The notes beneath the pieces are model-generated. The model saw only the letters and a program-made list of their open reading frames with translations. It made no database searches and had not been told where the DNA came from. 64,000 nt of DNA from Escherichia phage vB_EcoM_G5211: the sequence record MK327947.1. One strand, written 5' to 3'. Within the stretch, counting starts at the first letter, position 1; each line of letters starts with the position of its first letter. Below are positions 41,506-59,893 of the stretch, one piece after another. The position numbers and the translations under genes are program-made.

Positions 41506-41552
41506 ATTACCTCACTTCATATTTTAGCAGGAACAAGTTTATCCTCCATATT

Positions 41553-41577
41553 GGGGGCTTTCGCCCCCCTTTTTTTT
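41553..41577 (+). terminator. antisense-oriented intrinsic terminator (GNRA-type hairpin plus T9) between td and nrdA
   Basis: On the + strand GGGGGC-tttc-GCCCCC followed by nine T; local genes are on the - strand. Confidence 0.45.
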
Positions 41578-42796
41578 ATACTGCCATTTGAGCGGTGATC
41601 GCTGGATGGCTTTGATAGTTGTGAATTTTAAAGTCTTTAGGAGTTTTTGTCAATACCTCATCTAAAGATTTAAATTCCGGCAACTCAATTGTTGGTTTAT
41701 CAAACGGAACACGGCTTAACTGTTCCATAACTTGGTCAAAATGGTTTTTGTAAATGTGAGTATCTCCACCAGAGAAAATCAGTTCTCCTACCTCAAGATC
41801 ACACATTTTCGCTATGATGTGAGTTAACAGCGCATAGCTGGCGACGTTAAAGGGCAAGCCCAAAAAGCTGTCTACGCTTCGCTGAAACCACATACAAGAC
41901 AATTTACCTTCATTGACATAGAATTGCACGAAAGGATGACATACACCTAATACAGCATTATGTGTTCCTTGTACGTTCCATGAGTCAATAATGATCCGGC
42001 GATCCGTTGGATTGTTTTTAATTTGTTCAATCACGTTTTGTAACTGGTCTTCCCAAATCTTCGGGCGATAGACATATTCTTCATCGTCTTTAGTGCTTGA
42101 TGTGTCTACGTCCATACTAACAAACATCGTGGTATCCGGTGCTATAATATCCCCACCCAGATAATCACTATCAAGCAGATAACCGAAATAACCATCATCT
42201 ACCCATTCCTGGAATCCCCACAAGCAATATGCATCATTAACAAAATTAGATTGAGTCTTCCAGTGGTCTGCTACCAGAATATAATCAAACTCTTCATAAC
42301 GCATACCACGCCAGATAGCACATAAACGGTCTTCTGTGTCATTGGTTGGCGTAAAGTCTTCTACCCACGGGTGCTTAAATGTATGTGTATATTTGCTCTT
42401 AACGCGCTTAATTTTGATTTCACCATGTGGATGAATCGGTTTGCGTCGCCACGCCATACCATACATATTGCCGACATTATAACCATTGAATCGCAAGGGA
42501 TTCTTTTCTTTCATATCAAGACAGTTGCCGCGCCAAATATCAAAGGCTTCCTCGTCAAACTTGCCTCGTGTAATTTCCTGTAAGCGACGGCGGTCAAGTG
42601 ATCCCTCCATAAACCATAGCAATTCGCCAATTACAGAGGCTGTAGCCATCTTTTTAGTGGTAAGTAAGGGGAAACCCTTGCTTAAGTCAATTCGCATCTC
42701 TGCGCCGAATTTAGATAGCGTACCTACCCCCGTGCGGTCTTCACGAGGCCAGCCATTATCAAGAACATCATGCAACAGTTTCAAATATTCTTTCAT
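41576..42796 (-). CDS. td: thymidylate synthase with ~120-aa in-frame insertion
   Basis: TS hallmarks DRTGVGT, CHPFVQFYV..GKLSC..FQRSVDSFLGLPFNVASYALL; 406 aa versus ~265-286 aa for typical TS; continuous ORF with no intron. Confidence 0.85.
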   Translation of the reverse strand: MKEYLKLLHDVLDNGWPREDRTGVGTLSKFGAEMRIDLSKGFPLLTTKKMATASVIGELLWFMEGSLDRRRLQEITRGKFDEEAFDIWRGNCLDMKEKNPLRFNGYNVGNMYGMAWRRKPIHPHGEIKIKRVKSKYTHTFKHPWVEDFTPTNDTEDRLCAIWRGMRYEEFDYILVADHWKTQSNFVNDAYCLWGFQEWVDDGYFGYLLDSDYLGGDIIAPDTTMFVSMDVDTSSTKDDEEYVYRPKIWEDQLQNVIEQIKNNPTDRRIIIDSWNVQGTHNAVLGVCHPFVQFYVNEGKLSCMWFQRSVDSFLGLPFNVASYALLTHIIAKMCDLEVGELIFSGGDTHIYKNHFDQVMEQLSRVPFDKPTIELPEFKSLDEVLTKTPKDFKIHNYQSHPAITAQMAV

Positions 42797-44548: not shown

Positions 44549-45517
44549 TTACATCCCTAACAGAGCGTCAAGATCATCCAGATCAGAAGCGGAGGAAGTA
44601 CCGCCACCCAGATCCAGCGATGCCATCAGGTCATCAGCGGAAGAATCTAACGCCGTGCTAGCTGCGTTAATACCAACTACAGTGCTAGCTGCGTTAATAC
44701 CAGAATCGAATGCATTCATCTGTGCGTCAAAATCGTCAAGCTGGCTGTTAATCGCTGCCGCAGCACTGGAAGCCGCAGCACCAGCTACCATAGAAACGCC
44801 CATAGTTTTCTTAAATTTGGTTTCCAGTTCATCGAACGGTTTAAACTGGCTAGGCGCTACAATCTCACTCAGGTCAACCATGTTTTCCATCAGATATTTC
44901 TGATATGCTTCGTCTTCAATTTTCGGAAGCTGTGATTGCTGCATGAAACGAGAATCATCATAGTTCTGGTGTTTATCAACCTTCTTAGCTTTCAGGAGGA
45001 AGTTAGCACCGGAGAACACACAAGTTACATCTACCGGAACTTCGCCCATGTCGGTATTCACGTTCACCATTGCAACGATCTTATCATAAATTTTCTGACC
45101 GAAGCGGAATTTGAATACCTTACCTTCATTTTCTGGTGATTGAGGATCTTTCAGTACCAGAATATTTGCGTAGTAAGACGCTTTACGCTTAATCAGTTGC
45201 CATTCGGTTTTATCGGTATTGTACAGGTCTTTTTCGTTAATATATTTGCACACAGGGCAAGAATCAAAATCACCGTGGGTGCTGGAGCAGTTTTCCCAAT
45301 ACCATTTGCCATTAACTTTGAAGGAATGGTTTACCAGTTTCACAATCGGCAGACCGTCTTCTGTCTTAGACGGCAGGAAGCGAATCAGGGCTTCACCGTT
45401 ACCTGCTGCATCAGTCTTAATCTTCCACTCTTTTGGATCTTCTTTGGAGAAACCGTTGCCACCTTTCAGTGCGGCCAGTTGAGCTTGCAGTTTGGAAGAA
45501 TCTTGGCGTTTAAACAT
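44549..45517 (-). CDS. 32: single-stranded DNA-binding protein gp32
   Basis: From the internal ATG (MFKRQ..); ..[27 protein letters not shown].. parallels T4 gp32; acidic C-terminus. Confidence 0.9.
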
Positions 45518-45553
45518 ATTCACTATTCCTTCTTTTGATTAATTTACTAGACT

Positions 45554-45581
45554 ATTATACAGATTTAAGTTTACTTGTCAA
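45554..45581 (-). promoter_or_regulatory. sigma70-type promoter TTGACA-16-TATAAT upstream of gene 32
   Basis: Perfect hexamers on the - strand; -35 overlaps the gene 59 stop; AU-rich leader precedes the gp32 start. Confidence 0.55.
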
Positions 45582-46258
45582 CTATTTGTTTCGGATTTTA
45601 ATTGAGATATTTCTTTACACTCTTTAACTACTTTAACAAATAATGCTCTTGCTTTTGCGGCGTCAATAACAAGTAGTTTCTTGTACGCCTTCATTTTAAC
45701 ACTATAAGTTTGCCAAATCAAGTCTTTGGCTACCTTGTCGTGTTCGTCGATTATATTTAGAAAGCTATCTAACAACATAAACGACTCAAACGATATAATC
45801 CGATTTTGCAGTAGTTTAAAGATACCGCTAGTTTCGGTTGCGGGATTGTATGTAATTAGCTCTTTAAGAGTAACCCCGCGTTTCTCGGAGAAGTATACCA
45901 GACTTTTAATGTCATCGTCAAATCTTGTTGCTGCATCGGTTATCTTTCCTATGTATTCCATATAAAAGCCGTATGCGTCAACATCAGTGATTTCACCTAC
46001 CCATGCATCGGTATTAGCTACCAGATTGCTTAGGAATAGGAAGTATAGTTCTCTTAGATTGTACTTTTCCGCTAATTTTGCGAAATAATACTTATCTCTG
46101 CGTTTATTGAATGCGGCATCAGACAACCGCATCCTCCAATTGTATTTTACGCAATCATAACGCCCGTTCATATGAGCTTTCATCATGCAATATAACATAT
46201 ACACAGATTTAGCATTAATTCGCATATCTGGATCTGGAGGAAGACGGTTTCTGATCAT
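45578..46258 (-). CDS. 59: helicase loader gp59
   Basis: 226 aa; ..GKSVYMLYCMMKAHMNGRYD.. parallels the T4 gp59 N-terminus. Confidence 0.85.
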   Translation of the reverse strand: MIRNRLPPDPDMRINAKSVYMLYCMMKAHMNGRYDCVKYNWRMRLSDAAFNKRRDKYYFAKLAEKYNLRELYFLFLSNLVANTDAWVGEITDVDAYGFYMEYIGKITDAATRFDDDIKSLVYFSEKRGVTLKELITYNPATETSGIFKLLQNRIISFESFMLLDSFLNIIDEHDKVAKDLIWQTYSVKMKAYKKLLVIDAAKARALFVKVVKECKEISQLKSETNS

Positions 46259-46794: not shown

Positions 46795-47391
46795 TTAACC
46801 CTCTTTCGTCATTAATTGAAAACCACGTTCAGCTTTTGAAATTTCGCTAGGACTTAAATCGTCACCCACATATTCTAGCATCATTTCTCGGATAATGTCA
46901 AGTGCTTTTTCATCACCTGATTTTAACTCGAACTCAAGTTCATAGTGAGCATCTCCCATGACTTTGCCGACTTTGCAATAATAGAAAGTGTCTTTGCACA
47001 TTTCCACTATAGCACCCTCAAGGTCAAGTGTCAATGACTTGCGGTATGTCATTACTTGCAATAAAGGAACGATAAGGTCGGAGTTTACGCCTAGACTATC
47101 AACATAGTGATAGAAATCATCCATTGTTGAAAAAGTAATTTCTTCTCGGTTGAATAGTCCAGATTCACCATCACCTATTTTGACCATGATCAATGATCTA
47201 TTAACGTCAAGTCGAGCATAAATTCCTTTTCGACGCAGTGCATGATCTTCGGTATCATAATAAAATTCGTGTTTTAGAATGTTATCTCGGTCTACGAGAT
47301 TGTACCCGTCATACATTGCTACCCACAAATCACAGATGGTTTCGACGCCAATTTGTGAGTGTGCATAGTATTTTAATTCAAGTTCTTTCAT
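46795..47391 (-). CDS. CYTH-like (triphosphate tunnel metalloenzyme) domain protein
   Basis: N-terminal ELELK (ExExK) and later ELEFELK acidic motifs typical of CYTH/CyaB-ThTPase domains. Confidence 0.5.
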   Translation of the reverse strand: MKELELKYYAHSQIGVETICDLWVAMYDGYNLVDRDNILKHEFYYDTEDHALRRKGIYARLDVNRSLIMVKIGDGESGLFNREEITFSTMDDFYHYVDSLGVNSDLIVPLLQVMTYRKSLTLDLEGAIVEMCKDTFYYCKVGKVMGDAHYELEFELKSGDEKALDIIREMMLEYVGDDLSPSEISKAERGFQLMTKEG

Positions 47392-47401
47392 ATGTCAACC
47401 C

Positions 47402-52352: not shown

Positions 52353-52359
52353 TTAAAAG

Positions 52360-52377
52360 GGGGGCGAAAGCCCCCTA
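52360..52377 (-). terminator. antisense-oriented hairpin terminator between genes 34 and 35
   Basis: GGGGGC-uuuc-GCCCCCC followed by UUUUAAUU on the - strand; reverse complement of the element at 41553. Confidence 0.4.
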
Positions 52378-53729: not shown

Positions 53730-55220
53730 ATGGCAGATTTGAAACATGGATCTACTGTAGGCGGATCTCCCATTTGGACGCAAGGAAACTTGACGATCCA
53801 GCCAGCGGGTGATCAGCTTTTCTACAAAGGTCATAAAATCTATACCGCTTTTGATAAACCTTCGGCTGCCGATTTTGATGCTGTTAGTGCATCCGAAGGG
53901 GGTACATTTCAGAAACTGGTCCATTTTGAGGAAGGTTTAAGCGTAGGTAGCGCATCCGGTGGAGAAACCAAAAAGAACGGGATCTTTAAAGGCAATAGTG
54001 ATGCGGCTAACTTTGACGGTGTAAGTTGGGGTTTGCATTCGTGGAAATCTATTGGTTTTGTTAATGCTCGTGATGATGTTATCATGGCTTATATTGACAC
54101 TACCACAGGTGATTTTAAAACTAAAGGGACCATCGAAGGGACAACCATTAAAGACACAGGTCAACGCGTCTATAGCCCTGTTAATAAACCAACGAATAAT
54201 GATTTAGATTTGGTGTCTCGTCGCGGTGATACCCTCACAGGAACATATAATTTAAACACTGTCACTGTTAAACTATCGGTTGATTCGAAATTAATTGCAA
54301 GGGAACGTGATTTAATTAATTTTGATGCGACTAAGATCTATTATGGTAACGTTCTTGATACGTTGGTCTTCCGAAGTAAAGATGAGCCTACCATTTTTGT
54401 TAATGGCAGAGAAGGTCGTTTTTATCACACCAACAATAAACCAACTAAAGCCGATGTTGGGCTAGGCAATGTCACCAATGATGCACAGGTTAAACGTGCT
54501 GGTGATATTATGGAAGGTAACTTGCAAGCGCCTAGAATGTTGGCGACAAACGATCCGGCTGGTCCTAATGAATTGGTTCGTTTGAGCTACTTTGAGAAAA
54601 AATCAATGGTAGCAAATCCAACCATCATAGGAAACGTTGATTGGAACACTCTTATTAATCGCGGTATCTATCGTGTGGAAAATGCTGGGTCAGGTACTAA
54701 TAAACCGTCTGATAGCTATTATAACGGCGTTTTGATGGTATATCGCCCAGAAGATGCGGTCGGTACTCGTCGAATTGTTCAGGTATACTATCCTGAATCT
54801 ATTGATCATCCGATGTGCTGGCGTTCTTGTTCTAATGAATCATGGACTGCATGGAACTATGTAGATCACCGTAAATTGGCTGATATTCGCTATGTTAACG
54901 TCACTGGCGATACCATGACAGGACCGTTAACTGTTCCGGCGGCAAATGGCGTTCATACCGCAGAAGCTAACTATAATGGTGATAATTGCTACGCTGGACT
55001 TAATAGCTTAAATGGCACAGCAATGATTCATCGTGTTAGTGATATTAAAGCGCACGAGAAACTAGGCATCACACATGATTCTAAAATTATTTTCGTTAAA
55101 TCACGCAACAATACTCAGGACACCGATACATTTGAATTATACCACGAAGGACACAAACCAACTCCTGATGATGTTGGCGCTGTTCCGCTTAATGCGGTAA
55201 TTGATTTTGGTACTTTCTAA
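53730..55220 (+). CDS. 36: long tail fibre subunit gp36 (enlarged, 496 aa)
   Basis: N-terminus MADLKHGSTVGGSPIWTQGN.. parallels T4 gp36, which is only ~221 aa. Confidence 0.8.
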   Translation: MADLKHGSTVGGSPIWTQGNLTIQPAGDQLFYKGHKIYTAFDKPSAADFDAVSASEGGTFQKLVHFEEGLSVGSASGGETKKNGIFKGNSDAANFDGVSWGLHSWKSIGFVNARDDVIMAYIDTTTGDFKTKGTIEGTTIKDTGQRVYSPVNKPTNNDLDLVSRRGDTLTGTYNLNTVTVKLSVDSKLIARERDLINFDATKIYYGNVLDTLVFRSKDEPTIFVNGREGRFYHTNNKPTKADVGLGNVTNDAQVKRAGDIMEGNLQAPRMLATNDPAGPNELVRLSYFEKKSMVANPTIIGNVDWNTLINRGIYRVENAGSGTNKPSDSYYNGVLMVYRPEDAVGTRRIVQVYYPESIDHPMCWRSCSNESWTAWNYVDHRKLADIRYVNVTGDTMTGPLTVPAANGVHTAEANYNGDNCYAGLNSLNGTAMIHRVSDIKAHEKLGITHDSKIIFVKSRNNTQDTDTFELYHEGHKPTPDDVGAVPLNAVIDFGTF

Positions 55221-55224
55221 TTCT

Positions 55225-55250
55225 AGCGGGGATTATCCCCGCTTTTCTAA
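55225..55250 (+). terminator. hairpin plus T-run after gene 36
   Basis: AGCGGGG-auua-UCCCCGCU followed by UUUUC. Confidence 0.5.
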
Positions 55251-55287
55251 ATAATATTATTCTAACAACCGTTAAGGATTTTATAAA

Positions 55288-58068
55288 ATGGCAGATTTAC
55301 AGAGAATCCAATTTAAAAGAACAAGTACGGCAGGTCGCAAGCCGGATGCGAATATTCTAACTCCGGGTGAACTTGCTATTAACCTAGCGGATCGAGAACT
55401 ATATACAAAAGATGACAGCAATAATGTAATTACTTTGGGACACTTTCGCGGTGAGTTGCCATCTGATGCAAATTTAGATAATTATGGACCTACTGGTAAA
55501 TTTACTGGCGTTTGGTCTAAATCAACTTCAACAAATGCGCAGCCAGCAAATAAATTCCCAGAAGAGAATGCTGTAGGTGTATTAGAAGTATTTGTGGCTG
55601 GTCAATTTGCTGGCACTCAGCGTTATACTGTTCGGTCTGGTAACGTTTATATCCGTTCTTTGTCTGCGAAATGGAATGGCGTAGATGGTCCATGGGGTCC
55701 GTGGCGCAATATTCAAACTGGCACACGTCCACTATCAACTACACTAGACTTGAATACTTTAGGTGATGCTTCTCATTTTGGGTTATGGCGAAATAGTTCA
55801 AGTTCCATTGCATCATTTTCTCGAAATTACCCAGAAGAAGGTGGTCTCGCGCAAGGTCTTTTAGAAATTTATGAAGGTGGTAACTATTCTCGCACGCAAC
55901 GTTATACTACCCGAATGGGTGTTGTATATGTTCGTTGTCTTGCTGGTGCATGGGATCCAGAAGCTCCGAATTGGGGACCGTGGCAACAAGTAGGTATGGT
56001 TACTCCCAACACATTCTATGACGGGGATCTTAATAATTTTCGTTCTCCTGGCTTATATAATATTTTAGGCACTGATGCCGTTATTAACCGTCCAGTTGCA
56101 GAAGGTGTTCCGGTTGAGATGACCGGATTGCTTGAGGTTAAACAGCGTGCTTCCGGTGGCGCTATTTTCCAACGTTTCACTACCGCAGGAACGGGATCTA
56201 CTACCCGTGGTCGTGTTTTTGAACGTGCAATGACAAATAATATCTGGGGAAATTGGCATGAAGTATATACATCTTATTCTCTGCCAATTACTTTGGGTAT
56301 GGGTGGTATTAAAACTCAATTAGCGGAGCTAGATTGGCAAACATTTGATTTTGTTCCTGGTAGTATGTTTAGCGTTCCTTTGAACAAAATAAAGAACATG
56401 CCAGCAAATATGGATTGGGGTGCGATTGACGGAAACTTGGTTATGTTTTCTGTCGGTCCTAGCGAACACACTAGCACAGGGCGTACTGTTCAGGTTTGGC
56501 GTGGTACTGTATCCCAGACAAACTACCGTTATTTTGTCGTTCGTGTGTTCGGTAATTCTGGAAATAGAACTTGTACAGTTCGCCGTGTTGTTCTTGAAGA
56601 CGGATCACATACTTGGACTGCTAAACAAGATTTTAATGGTGCTGTCAACTTTGGTGGTTCGACAACTTTTAAGTCCACTACAACTTTTAACACAGAAGTT
56701 AAATTCCGTTCATCCAATGCATTTAAAATGTATGGCGGTAATTTTGGCACAATTTTCCGTAATGATGGTGAAAGTCTTTATATTCTTTCCACCGACGAAA
56801 ATGATCAAGATGGAAACTTTAATACAAATAGACCTTTCCGCTATCAATTAAAAACTGGCGATGTTACTTTGGGTGGCACTAGCGGTGCTAACGCTTTAGT
56901 ATTAAAAGGCGGTTCTCTTGCTGCTACCTTTAGCGGTGATGTTAATTTAAGTAAAGGTACGCTGACGTTTGAAGCGGGTGGTAAGCAATCACGCGATTAT
57001 TTCCGGTTTAATCATTGGGGTGATAGCAATAACGCTCGTGATAACATTATTCAGTTAGAAGATAGTAAAGGCGCTCATTTTTCCACTGAACGTACTTTAG
57101 CGACTGGTGCAATTAAAACTAAATTCTTTGGTGAAGTTGAATCAACTGGTCGATTGACTATTAAACGTCCGGGTGGTGCTATTGTATTATCGACTACAGC
57201 CAGCAACGCTTTGCATATTCGCGGTGACGTAGACGGGAATGGTAACTGGTATATTGGTAAAGGTGGTGCTGATAATTCGCTAGCATTTTATAGCTATGCT
57301 ACTCAGGCGGCAGTACATATAACAAACAATGGTGAGATTGCGTTAAACCCGCAAAATACCTTAATGGTTAACGTTAACCGCGATCGTATGTATATCAATG
57401 GTGCAAGTTGGGTTGCCAGACAACCAGGTGATTGGGGCAACCAATGGCGAGTAGAAGCTCCATTATTCGTTGATCATGGTTATGTTGGTCAAGATAGTTA
57501 TTATCCTATTCTTAAAGCAAGAAGCGTTATAACCAATCAAGGATATAGCACCGCTGTTGACTTTGGTATGCGTCGTATTCCATCACAGTGGGGGCAAGCA
57601 ATCATTCGTGTCGGATCCACGGAGGCTTCTCCTGATGCTGGACACCCACAAGCTGTGTTTGAATTCCATCATGATGGGTTCTTTTATACACCAGGAAATG
57701 GTAGCTTTAGCGATGTGTATATTCGTTCTGACTCCCGTCTTAAGATTAATAAAGAAGAGTTAGAAAACGGAGCACTTGAAAAAGTATGCCGTCTGAAAGT
57801 TTATACTTACGATAAAGTTAAGTCTATTAAAGATCGTAGTGTGATTAAACGTGAAGCTGGTATTATTGCTCAGGATCTTGAAAAAGAATTGCCGGAAGCT
57901 GTATCTAAAGTTGAAGTTGATGGATCTGATGTTCTGACAATTTCTAACTCGGCAGTGAATGCTCTTTTAATTAAGGCTATTCAGGAAATGAGTGAAGAAA
58001 TTAAAGAATTGAAAACTCCTTTCTTTACTAAAATTGCTCGCAAAATTAGTAAATATTTTAAATTCTAA
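55288..58068 (+). CDS. 37: long tail fibre distal subunit gp37 with C-terminal intramolecular-chaperone (S74-like) domain
   Basis: N-terminus MADLQRIQFKRTSTAGRKPD.. parallels T4/T2 gp37; C-terminal SDSRLKINKEELENGALEKV..GIIAQDLEKELPEAV matches the auto-cleaving chaperone signature. Confidence 0.85.
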   Translation: MADLQRIQFKRTSTAGRKPDANILTPGELAINLADRELYTKDDSNNVITLGHFRGELPSDANLDNYGPTGKFTGVWSKSTSTNAQPANKFPEENAVGVLEVFVAGQFAGTQRYTVRSGNVYIRSLSAKWNGVDGPWGPWRNIQTGTRPLSTTLDLNTLGDASHFGLWRNSSSSIASFSRNYPEEGGLAQGLLEIYEGGNYSRTQRYTTRMGVVYVRCLAGAWDPEAPNWGPWQQVGMVTPNTFYDGDLNNFRSPGLYNILGTDAVINRPVAEGVPVEMTGLLEVKQRASGGAIFQRFTTAGTGSTTRGRVFERAMTNNIWGNWHEVYTSYSLPITLGMGGIKTQLAELDWQTFDFVPGSMFSVPLNKIKNMPANMDWGAIDGNLVMFSVGPSEHTSTGRTVQVWRGTVSQTNYRYFVVRVFGNSGNRTCTVRRVVLEDGSHTWTAKQDFNGAVNFGGSTTFKSTTTFNTEVKFRSSNAFKMYGGNFGTIFRNDGESLYILSTDENDQDGNFNTNRPFRYQLKTGDVTLGGTSGANALVLKGGSLAATFSGDVNLSKGTLTFEAGGKQSRDYFRFNHWGDSNNARDNIIQLEDSKGAHFSTERTLATGAIKTKFFGEVESTGRLTIKRPGGAIVLSTTASNALHIRGDVDGNGNWYIGKGGADNSLAFYSYATQAAVHITNNGEIALNPQNTLMVNVNRDRMYINGASWVARQPGDWGNQWRVEAPLFVDHGYVGQDSYYPILKARSVITNQGYSTAVDFGMRRIPSQWGQAIIRVGSTEASPDAGHPQAVFEFHHDGFFYTPGNGSFSDVYIRSDSRLKINKEELENGALEKVCRLKVYTYDKVKSIKDRSVIKREAGIIAQDLEKELPEAVSKVEVDGSDVLTISNSAVNALLIKAIQEMSEEIKELKTPFFTKIARKISKYFKF

Positions 58069-58104
58069 CAACAAGGGGGCGTTGCCCCCTTTGGAGTATA
58101 AATT

Positions 58105-58218
58105 ATGGCAGTAGTTGGTGTTCCTGGTTGGATTGGAAGTTCAGCCGCAAATGAAACAGGACAACGATGGATGAGTCAAGCGGCTGGTCAATTAAGATTG
58201 GTGTTCCTTGCTGGATGA
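58105..58218 (+). pseudogene. 38: gp38 adhesin N-terminal segment (37 codons) in a different frame from the gp38 body
   Basis: GGAG RBS then [32 protein letters not shown] (conserved gp38 N-terminus), running into a TGA at 58216; the body continues in the -1 frame. Confidence 0.6.
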
Positions 58219-58904
58219 GTCAATTTGCAGGTCGCTCGCGAGAAATTATTCATACTGTAGGAGCAAACCACAATTTTAATGGTCAGTGGTTCCGTGATAG
58301 ATGCTTTGAAGCTGGCGGTGCACCTATTGTATTCAATATTGTTGGTGATATCGTTTCTTATTCTAAAGATGTACCGCTTTTCTTTATGTATGGTGACACT
58401 CCTAACGAATACGTTGTCCTTAATATTCATGGTGGTGTCCATATGTGGGGTCGAGGTGGTAATGGTGGATACACTCACTCAGGTGGAGATGGTAACGGTA
58501 CACAAGGCGGTCATGTTATTCAAAATGATATCGGTGGACGGCTTCGTATTTGGAACTACGGTGTTATAGCTGCTGGCGGTGGTGGCGGTGGTGGTATTGC
58601 ATATCGTCCACACTCAGGGGCAAACTGGCAAGATATCGGTGGCGGTGGCGGTCGACCTTTCGGTGGTGCTGGCGGTGGCGGTTATTCCGGTGGTGCTGCT
58701 TCTTATGAAGGTCCGGGTGGTGGTTACAACTATGGTAACGCACACTCCGGCGCGGGTGGTAATGCTGGCGCTGCTGGTCAGAATGCATGGTCTGATGGCG
58801 GTAAAGTTCTTAAAGTTGGTGTTGGTGGTGCTTCTGGTCATGCCGTGTTTGGATCTTCTCCAACTTGGGGCGCTGTAGGGACAATTTATGGACCTTACAT
58901 TTAA
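58167..58904 (+). CDS. 38: gp38 receptor-recognising adhesin, body with glycine-rich motifs (T2-type)
   Basis: ..[41 protein letters not shown].. plus poly-Gly motifs; no RBS before this in-frame ATG. Confidence 0.8.
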
Positions 58905-58963
58905 CCGTTAAAAAAGAATTAAGGAAAAATCCCAGGGAAGGGAACTACTAAGGAGAAACGGCT

Positions 58964-59203
58964 ATGGTCTATAATATCGTCATTGGTGCTTTGTCTAATT
59001 TCGGAATGAAATTATTGTCAAAGTTAATTAGTGAAAAGATGCTCACTAAAATTTTCTTCTATTGCGCTCGTCGTCTTGCGGCTTATACCAATACGCCAAT
59101 TGATGATCGTTTTGTGGAAGAACTTTATAAGGAGTTTAATAAAGATCAGTCAGAAGATAGTAACGAGCAAGATAAACCTAGTGATAGTCAACTACCTAAA
59201 TAA
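58964..59203 (+). CDS. small protein with hydrophobic N-terminus (79 aa) between genes 38 and t
   Basis: AAGGAGAA RBS; N-terminal MVYNIVIGALSNFGMKLLSKLI; acidic C-terminus. Confidence 0.55.
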   Translation: MVYNIVIGALSNFGMKLLSKLISEKMLTKIFFYCARRLAAYTNTPIDDRFVEELYKEFNKDQSEDSNEQDKPSDSQLPK

Positions 59204-59236
59204 GAGTACACTGTCATAGTTATCTTAGGGCATTAT

Positions 59237-59893
59237 ATGCAAGTTTCTGAAAAAGGGAAAGACTTTGCTATCTCAAATGTCCTGCGCGCTATTTTCACAA
59301 CTAAAAGCACGGAGTTGCTCGTACTTCGTGTTTTTGCTGCCGTCGTGTTGTCCATATTAGCATTTGTCGTTTATAGTAAAAACGAGTTATTTGCGCTTTA
59401 TAAAGAGACTCGTTATGAGACTTATGCTCACATTCTCCAGGTAGAGAAAGACCGCAATTTTGATAATGCAGCACAGGAGCAGTTACAGATAGTTCATGTG
59501 TCGGCTGATGCCGATTTTTCTGCTGTTTTTAGTTTTCGTCCGAAAAACCTAAACTATTTTGTTGATTTGGTGGCATATGAAGGAAAGTTACCGCATACAA
59601 TCGATGAAAAAAATTTAGGCGGATTCCCTATCAATAAAACGAGTGAAGAATATCGTAGGCATCTTTTAGGTAAATCATATTTTACCGATAAAGATTTCCA
59701 GTATATTCCATCAAGAGAAAAGAAATTAGAGAATATCGATATAGGGTTTATGTATTCTTGCCCTATATTCAATCTCGATAATGTCTATTCTGGTAGTATC
59801 GCCATTGCATGGAAGAATAAACCGGATATTGACATTGAGAATTTAGATACTCTTTGCAATCAATCTGCCAGAATCCTCGGAAGGATTAGATAA
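59237..59893 (+). CDS. t: holin T
   Basis: 218 aa; ..LEQLQIVHVSADADFSAVFSFRPKNLNYFVDLVAYEGKLP.. parallels T4 holin; N-terminal TM; C-terminal ..ARILGR.. Confidence 0.9.
   Translation: MQVSEKGKDFAISNVLRAIFTTKSTELLVLRVFAAVVLSILAFVVYSKNELFALYKETRYETYAHILQVEKDRNFDNAAQEQLQIVHVSADADFSAVFSFRPKNLNYFVDLVAYEGKLPHTIDEKNLGGFPINKTSEEYRRHLLGKSYFTDKDFQYIPSREKKLENIDIGFMYSCPIFNLDNVYSGSIAIAWKNKPDIDIENLDTLCNQSARILGRIR

Follow-up and report, generated by a model that had tools for sequence, protein, structure and literature searches.

Gene 38, which encodes the tail fiber adhesin gp38, lies in two reading frames in Escherichia phage vB_EcoM_G5211 (sequence record MK327947.1), and this raises the question of whether the phage carries an inactivated adhesin, an indel left by assembly, or a site at which translation shifts frame or restarts. 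All three options had been put forward in a sequence-only reading of the locus, and we followed them up in the window, by which we mean the whole stretch of 64,000 nucleotides that was analyzed and to which all coordinates refer. The comparisons described below make it very probable that gp38 is broken by a one-base indel that is private to this record and non-programmed, being due either to an artefact or to a mutation of very recent date.

The gp38 reading frame is interrupted by the absence of one G

ORF1 opens with an ATG at 58105 and ends at TGA 58216-58218, encoding 37 aa that correspond to gp38 residues 1-32 followed by the out-of-frame sequence VFLAG*. The -1 frame is open from a TGA at 58152 to a stop codon at 58902-58904, its longest ORF being 58167..58904 (245 aa). 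The features of the gene are the following:

58093..58096, + strand: Shine-Dalgarno sequence GGAG, 8 nt 5' of the native gp38 start codon, read from the sequence
58105..58218, + strand: ORF1, gp38 residues 1-32 (helices alpha1-alpha2, with Trp9 and Trp22), from the ORF list, Pfam and alignment to S16 gp38 (PDB 6F45 chain D)
58200..58201, + strand: the lesion, a GG run with one G fewer than the GGG of G2494, ECML-134, FL04 and KMB43, from alignment
58200..58904, + strand: gp38 residues 33-266 and stop codon in the -1 frame, comprising Trp36, helix alpha3, the beta-helix and the polyglycine receptor-binding domain, from Pfam and PDB matches

The first reading had described an ATG preceded by a ribosome-binding site (RBS), encoding the gp38 N-terminus and soon meeting a TGA, with the rest of the protein continuing in the -1 frame from about 58200; the ORF list, the GGAG motif and the PF05268 match of the body bear out both statements. 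By Pfam, ORF1 matches Gp38_N (PF21721) over profile positions 1-30 of 40 (E = 3.6e-16), and the body, that is, the part in the -1 frame, matches the complete GP38 domain PF05268 over positions 1-217 of 218 (E = 1e-65), two families that occur together in the single chain of the intact gp38 from Escherichia phage vB_EcoM_G2494. The body also matches PDB entries 9v85 (E = 3e-62) and 6f45 (E = 1e-43), and it contains the glycine-rich motifs and the hypervariable segments. Since these neighboring ORFs match consecutive parts of one family, they are not a chance pair, and one gene is truly interrupted. The continuous ORF of about 250-270 codons found in gp38 adhesins is absent here, the frame being broken at 58200-58201.

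Alignment located the break precisely. G2494 and ECML-134 have TTGGGTGTT where the window has TTGGTGTT, so that exactly one G is absent and GG is left at 58200-58201; FL04 and KMB43, two further Krischviruses, also carry GGG at this site. When one G is added, a gp38 of 266 aa is obtained in one frame, 100% identical to the G2494 protein, which confirms the earlier proposal that a single extra G would restore the full-length product.

The surroundings of the gene are those of other gp38 adhesin loci, with g38 directly 3' of a g37 that encodes a self-cleaving S74 chaperone domain:

55288..58068, + strand: gene 37, distal long-tail-fiber subunit of 926 aa, an ORF with a C-terminal Peptidase_S74 self-cleaving chaperone domain; docking partner of gp38
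58075..58092, + strand: intergenic GC hairpin GGGGGC-GTT-GCCCCC followed by TTT, between g37 and g38, read from the sequence
58964..59203, + strand: conserved 79-aa ORF between g38 and the holin gene, homologue of RB49ORF251w/dc5, from the ORF list and homology
59237..59893, + strand: holin gene t, 218 aa, the downstream neighbor, an ORF matching Phage_holin_T

The gp37 protein of the window is 100% identical to G2494 QBO63218, for which Gp34_trimer and Peptidase_S74 are the Pfam families on record. The hairpin between g37 and g38 went unreported in a consensus terminator scan because its T-run is too short. As for the 79-aa ORF, its identical G2494 copy is listed with PF26925 (Phage_PM2_Gpl) in a precomputed table, and a Pfam scan of the window copy returned no family at E <= 0.01. 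Between the gp38 ribosome-binding site and the ATG, the spacer at 58097-58104 reads TATAAATT, as it does in G2494, and it matches the T4 late-promoter consensus TATAAATA at 7 of 8 positions; a transcript begun at this late-promoter-like spacer would start downstream of the ATG at 58105.

The tip module is otherwise identical to that of G2494

The best database match of the locus is G2494 (MK327935, Krischvirus), aligned over 901 bases with a single gap and annotated with an intact gp38 gene of 801 nt. The window itself belongs to a Krischvirus genome, and over its whole length the best identity is 96.9%, also to G2494. By counting the differences between the two phages per 500 bp, we found that the missing G is the sole difference in the 4.9 kb from 54690 to 59587, a block spanning the 3' end of g36, g37, g38, the 79-aa ORF and the 5' end of t, and that the flanks of this block diverge by about 3%, with 3-70 differences in each 500-bp segment. 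At the DNA level, the gp38 gene also shares about 99% identity with its counterpart in the Tequatrovirus ECML-134. A tip module identical to that of G2494 between flanks differing by about 3%, together with a gp38 gene so close to one from another genus, suggests that phages of the same genus and of different genera have recently exchanged the adhesin module.

As no other difference from G2494 is found over the 4.9 kb, the deletion, if real, would be younger than any substitution there, and a long-standing pseudogene is excluded on the same ground.

The deleted allele in other collections and the quality of the assembly

We looked for the deleted allele in other sequences. A 30-mer across the deletion had no exact match in the IMG/VR viral contigs, in a genome set of 185,579 species or in the JGI metagenome contigs, and the corresponding intact 31-mer was present, by exact match, in 2 viral and 3 metagenome contigs; intact gp38 genes also occur in many GenBank phage records. 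Exact look-up retrieved no recorded product identical to the 245-aa, 229-aa or 37-aa sequence. Residues 1-110 of the restored gp38, used as a tblastn query, matched 755 phage records, and in all 60 that we sampled across the ranking the N-terminal region was continuous, as it was in 11 of 11 IMG/VR loci. Of the short gp38 entries in the protein database, those that we read (FL18 with 237 aa is one) have an in-frame Met codon as their start, and such N-terminally short entries may be start-call problems. Phage vB_EcoM_WL-3 (MT968995.1) was considered as a precedent for a frameshift and rejected: its gp38 gene (352-1149 of the stretch examined) is intact, with 266 codons, and merely mis-annotated, the record giving only a C-terminal CDS of 154 aa. 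A literature search for reports of gp38 frameshifts returned nothing relevant.

The window itself shows few signs of indel error. When it was searched by tblastn with the stop-to-stop ORFs of G2494, RB49 and KMB43, gp38 was the only annotated gene split between frames in the 64 kb. All other indels of 1-2 nt with respect to G2494 are compensated in frame, intergenic, or located at the extreme 3' ends of small ORFs. The other homopolymer changes private to the window, judged against three or four relatives, are intergenic by the G2494 annotation (25244, 30385, 36125, 41569/41574, about 44490, and 52358), even though runs of at least 5 nt number about 255 in coding and 48 in non-coding sequence according to a rough ORF-based partition, which places 30385 and 36125 inside ORFs where the G2494 annotation places both between genes. 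The distribution resembles natural variation on which selection has acted, and not platform error. An error-prone assembly was therefore rejected, given the lack of other coding frame splits in the window and the intergenic position of its other private homopolymer changes in that annotation.

Two of these changes unbalance the stems of intergenic GC hairpins at 41552-41580 and 52354-52375, one having G5 against C6 with a longer T-run and the other G6 against C5 with an extra A. Symmetric G5/C5 stems are found at both sites in G2494, RB49 and KMB43, and likewise in FL04 at 41552; the changes could be real variation or homopolymer miscalls.

An indel at 47217 was examined as a second frameshift of the window and rejected, because the window agrees there with RB49, FL04 and KMB43 and it is G2494 that is split. 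The ORF concerned (199 aa, 46798-47394, - strand), flanked by dsbA and rnh, is uninterrupted in the window and in these three phages; RB49 lists it as ygiF-like (RB49ORF244c), KMB43 calls it adenylate cyclase, and the one-base difference divides it into G2494_00250 and G2494_00251 in G2494. This CYTH-like ORF offers an example of the apparent frameshifts met in deposited phage genomes, which share with our locus a single-base indel splitting a conserved ORF; the difference is that gp38 is an essential structural gene, whereas the ORF split in G2494 is accessory. Several short overlapping CDS also replace single RB49 genes in the gp28/gp29/gp48/gp54 baseplate region of the KMB43 record (OR525698.1, 15353-19426), which suggests frameshifts or indels in that record.

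Predicted consequences for the tail fiber tip

In the structure of the S16 gp37-gp38 complex (PDB 6F45), an N-terminal bundle of three helices docks gp38 on the gp37 trimer, and each helix, alpha1 to alpha3, bears at its tip a conserved Trp that enters one of three equivalent gp37 pockets (PMC6851490); the N-terminal domains of gp38 had been described as fitting the gp37 C-termini in a lock-and-key manner (PMC3157838). Alignment to S16 gp38 (6F45 chain D) identified the docking residues of our protein as W9, W22 and W36, and these are divided between the two frames. ORF1 retains W9 and W22, and the body retains W36 at most. L32 and G33 lie on either side of the break, four residues ahead of W36, at a position that would correspond to the connection between alpha2 and alpha3 and not to the interior of a helix. 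As W9 and W22 are separated from W36, neither product should dock on gp37.

The receptor-binding domain of PP01 folds alone, a fusion sfGFP-gp38(41-259) having been crystallized and shown to cross-link to OmpC (PMC12892980; PDB 9v85). A body of this kind lacking the attachment domain should not sit on the fiber.

Gene 38 of the T2 type is essential, since the DT2(delta-g38) phage forms plaques only with gp38 supplied in trans (PMC12892980). In RB49, g38 occupies a distant locus (45367..46143), about 105 kb from g37 among early genes, and for this reason we sought a second gp38 copy in G2494. A tblastn search with 120 diverse gp38 proteins and the RB49 gp38 against the whole G2494 genome and the 64-kb window returned only the locus adjacent to g37. 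The idea that gp38 is dispensable through a second adhesin gene was accordingly set aside, no other copy being present in the G2494 genome or in the window. The site of G2494 that matches the displaced g38 of RB49 has no gp38 gene. After its g37, RB49 has no g38, just the 79-aa ORF RB49ORF251w/dc5; the window, G2494, FL04 and KMB43 have both the canonical g38 and the 79-aa ORF.

Artefact or very recent mutation

[quoted passage not shown] Its most likely origin, for which we see about an even chance, is a sequencing, consensus or assembly artefact or a captured minority variant; the G may have been lost by an error of base calling, of the consensus or of assembly, or the assembler may have picked up a variant present in a minority of molecules. 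If so, the working phage would make a normal gp38 of 266 aa, identical to that of G2494. The argument for an artefact is that gene 38 is essential and G2494 has a single gp38, so that a null allele fixed in a propagating phage is unexpected. The clean pattern of the window weakens this explanation without removing it. Homopolymer errors normally hit long runs, and a lone error at a run of 3 nt, with none at the longer coding runs, would be unusual.

It is also possible, although we rate it below an even chance, that the sequenced DNA truly lacks the G following a very recent loss-of-function mutation. The products would then be the 37-aa peptide and at most a free receptor-binding fragment unable to attach to gp37, leaving long tail fibers without adhesin and infectivity lost or severely reduced. 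The absence of any other coding frameshift or of signs of homopolymer noise in the rest of the 64 kb, which makes a random sequencing indel unlikely in advance, speaks for such a mutation, as does the splitting of the three-Trp attachment domain, and the lack of further substitutions in the 4.9 kb fits a very recent origin. Against it stand the essentiality of T2-type gene 38 and the single gp38 of the nearest complete genome, G2494, together with the expectation that, in a clone that propagates, the consensus should not be a null allele; moreover, the allele was found nowhere else in the three collections searched.

Restart signals and a possible two-piece gp38

We also evaluated whether the body could be translated from a start of its own. 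The following signals are present:

58158..58169, + strand: AGGA-caacg-ATG, a possible fortuitous internal start of the 245-aa body ORF, read from the sequence; its use as a start is putative
58215..58218, + strand: ATGA, in which the TGA stop of ORF1 overlaps the wild-type Met37 codon in the body frame, read from the sequence; its use in reinitiation is putative

The sequence-only reading had placed the start of the body ORF at 58167 with no RBS; the start is correct, and the statement about the RBS is not, as AGGA lies at 58158-58161, 5 nt 5' of the ATG. Adjacent phage genes are commonly coupled in translation through a stop codon that overlaps the next start codon (ATGA), and an overlap of the type used in termination-reinitiation is present here, TGA 58216-58218 overlapping the body-frame ATG 58215-58217. 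It differs from those between genes in having been made accidentally by the frameshift inside one gene, where the wild-type codons are TGG ATG AGT. Restart via ATGA 58215-58218 or via AGGA-N5-ATG 58167 is thus possible. The product from ATG 58167 would consist of G33 to I266 preceded by 11 foreign residues that are out of frame relative to gp38, and the product restarted at the ATGA overlap is predicted to run from M37 to I266 with none of the three docking Trp. Either one would be a receptor-binding domain without the full set of docking Trp, not a working adhesin.

An improbable version of a real deletion is that it is tolerated, gp38 being made in two pieces that reassemble on the gp37 tip: ORF1 with alpha1-alpha2, W9 and W22, and a body with W36, alpha3 and the receptor-binding domain, begun at 58167 or by reinitiation at 58215-58218. 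The start signals exist, the break would fall outside the helices in the probable alpha2-alpha3 connection, and the PP01 domain folds alone. However, a body begun at Met37 has no docking Trp and one begun at 58167 has only W36 after its foreign residues, and no natural split gp38 was seen in the phage records sampled (60 of the 755 matching) or among the protein matches, the short entries starting at in-frame Met codons.

Signals for programmed frameshifting

The two frames overlap by 66 nt (58155-58218), the overlap ending in a stop codon. We searched it for a slippery heptamer X XXY YYZ, even in a relaxed form in which either tRNA retains its first two pairs after the -1 shift, and found none: 0 of 21 in-phase heptamers (58152-58218) keep pairing at either tRNA site. 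Homopolymers in 58105-58230 reach 3 nt at most, the shift site being a GG, and with no run above 3 nt transcriptional slippage or phase variation is ruled out. The 90 nt downstream fold at -18.3 kcal/mol, compared with -19.3 ± 3.0 for shuffled sequences (z = +0.34), giving no significant structure of the stimulatory type, which at such sites lies 5-9 nt downstream. The two-frame arrangement is not conserved, since every relative examined has a single ORF, and the flanks are identical to those of G2494, which needs no frameshift.

Programmed -1 ribosomal frameshift sites occur in phage tail genes, lambda G/GT being an example. The gp38 locus shares with them a tail-associated gene in which two frames overlap and the upstream one stops soon afterwards, and differs in having no slippery heptamer, stimulatory structure or conserved arrangement. 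Programmed frameshifting at 58200-58201 is not supported, and a -1 ribosomal frameshift or transcriptional slippage near 58198-58203 restoring full-length gp38 at a useful rate, for which the geometry of the overlap is the single argument, is very improbable.

Discussion

Compared with other gp38 proteins of the T2/T6/Ox2 type (PF21721 and PF05268; PDB 6F45 and 9v85), the locus has the same gene position after an S74-type gp37, the three-Trp motif, and the glycine-rich motifs with hypervariable segments, and it differs in that the frame is broken after residue 32 and no single ORF encodes the whole protein. Among the options raised at the outset, an inactivated adhesin and an assembly indel both survive, judging from sequence alone, and the programmed frameshift is not supported, the allele being private to this record.

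In conclusion, the gp38 locus is, apart from the deletion, an ordinary adhesin gene of a well-known type, and its biology would be new only if a clone with confirmed GG turned out to be infectious. Annotators should mark it as gp38 carrying a probable sequencing frameshift, or label it disrupted, and should not enter it as two hypothetical proteins or as a recoding site. If the deletion is true in a plaque-forming stock, either the split gp38 still assembles on the fiber tip or a Krischvirus infects without a tip adhesin; a true two-piece gp38 would mean that the attachment bundle of three helices can withstand an interruption of its alpha2-alpha3 loop. Either outcome in such a stock would bear on the engineering of T-even host range.
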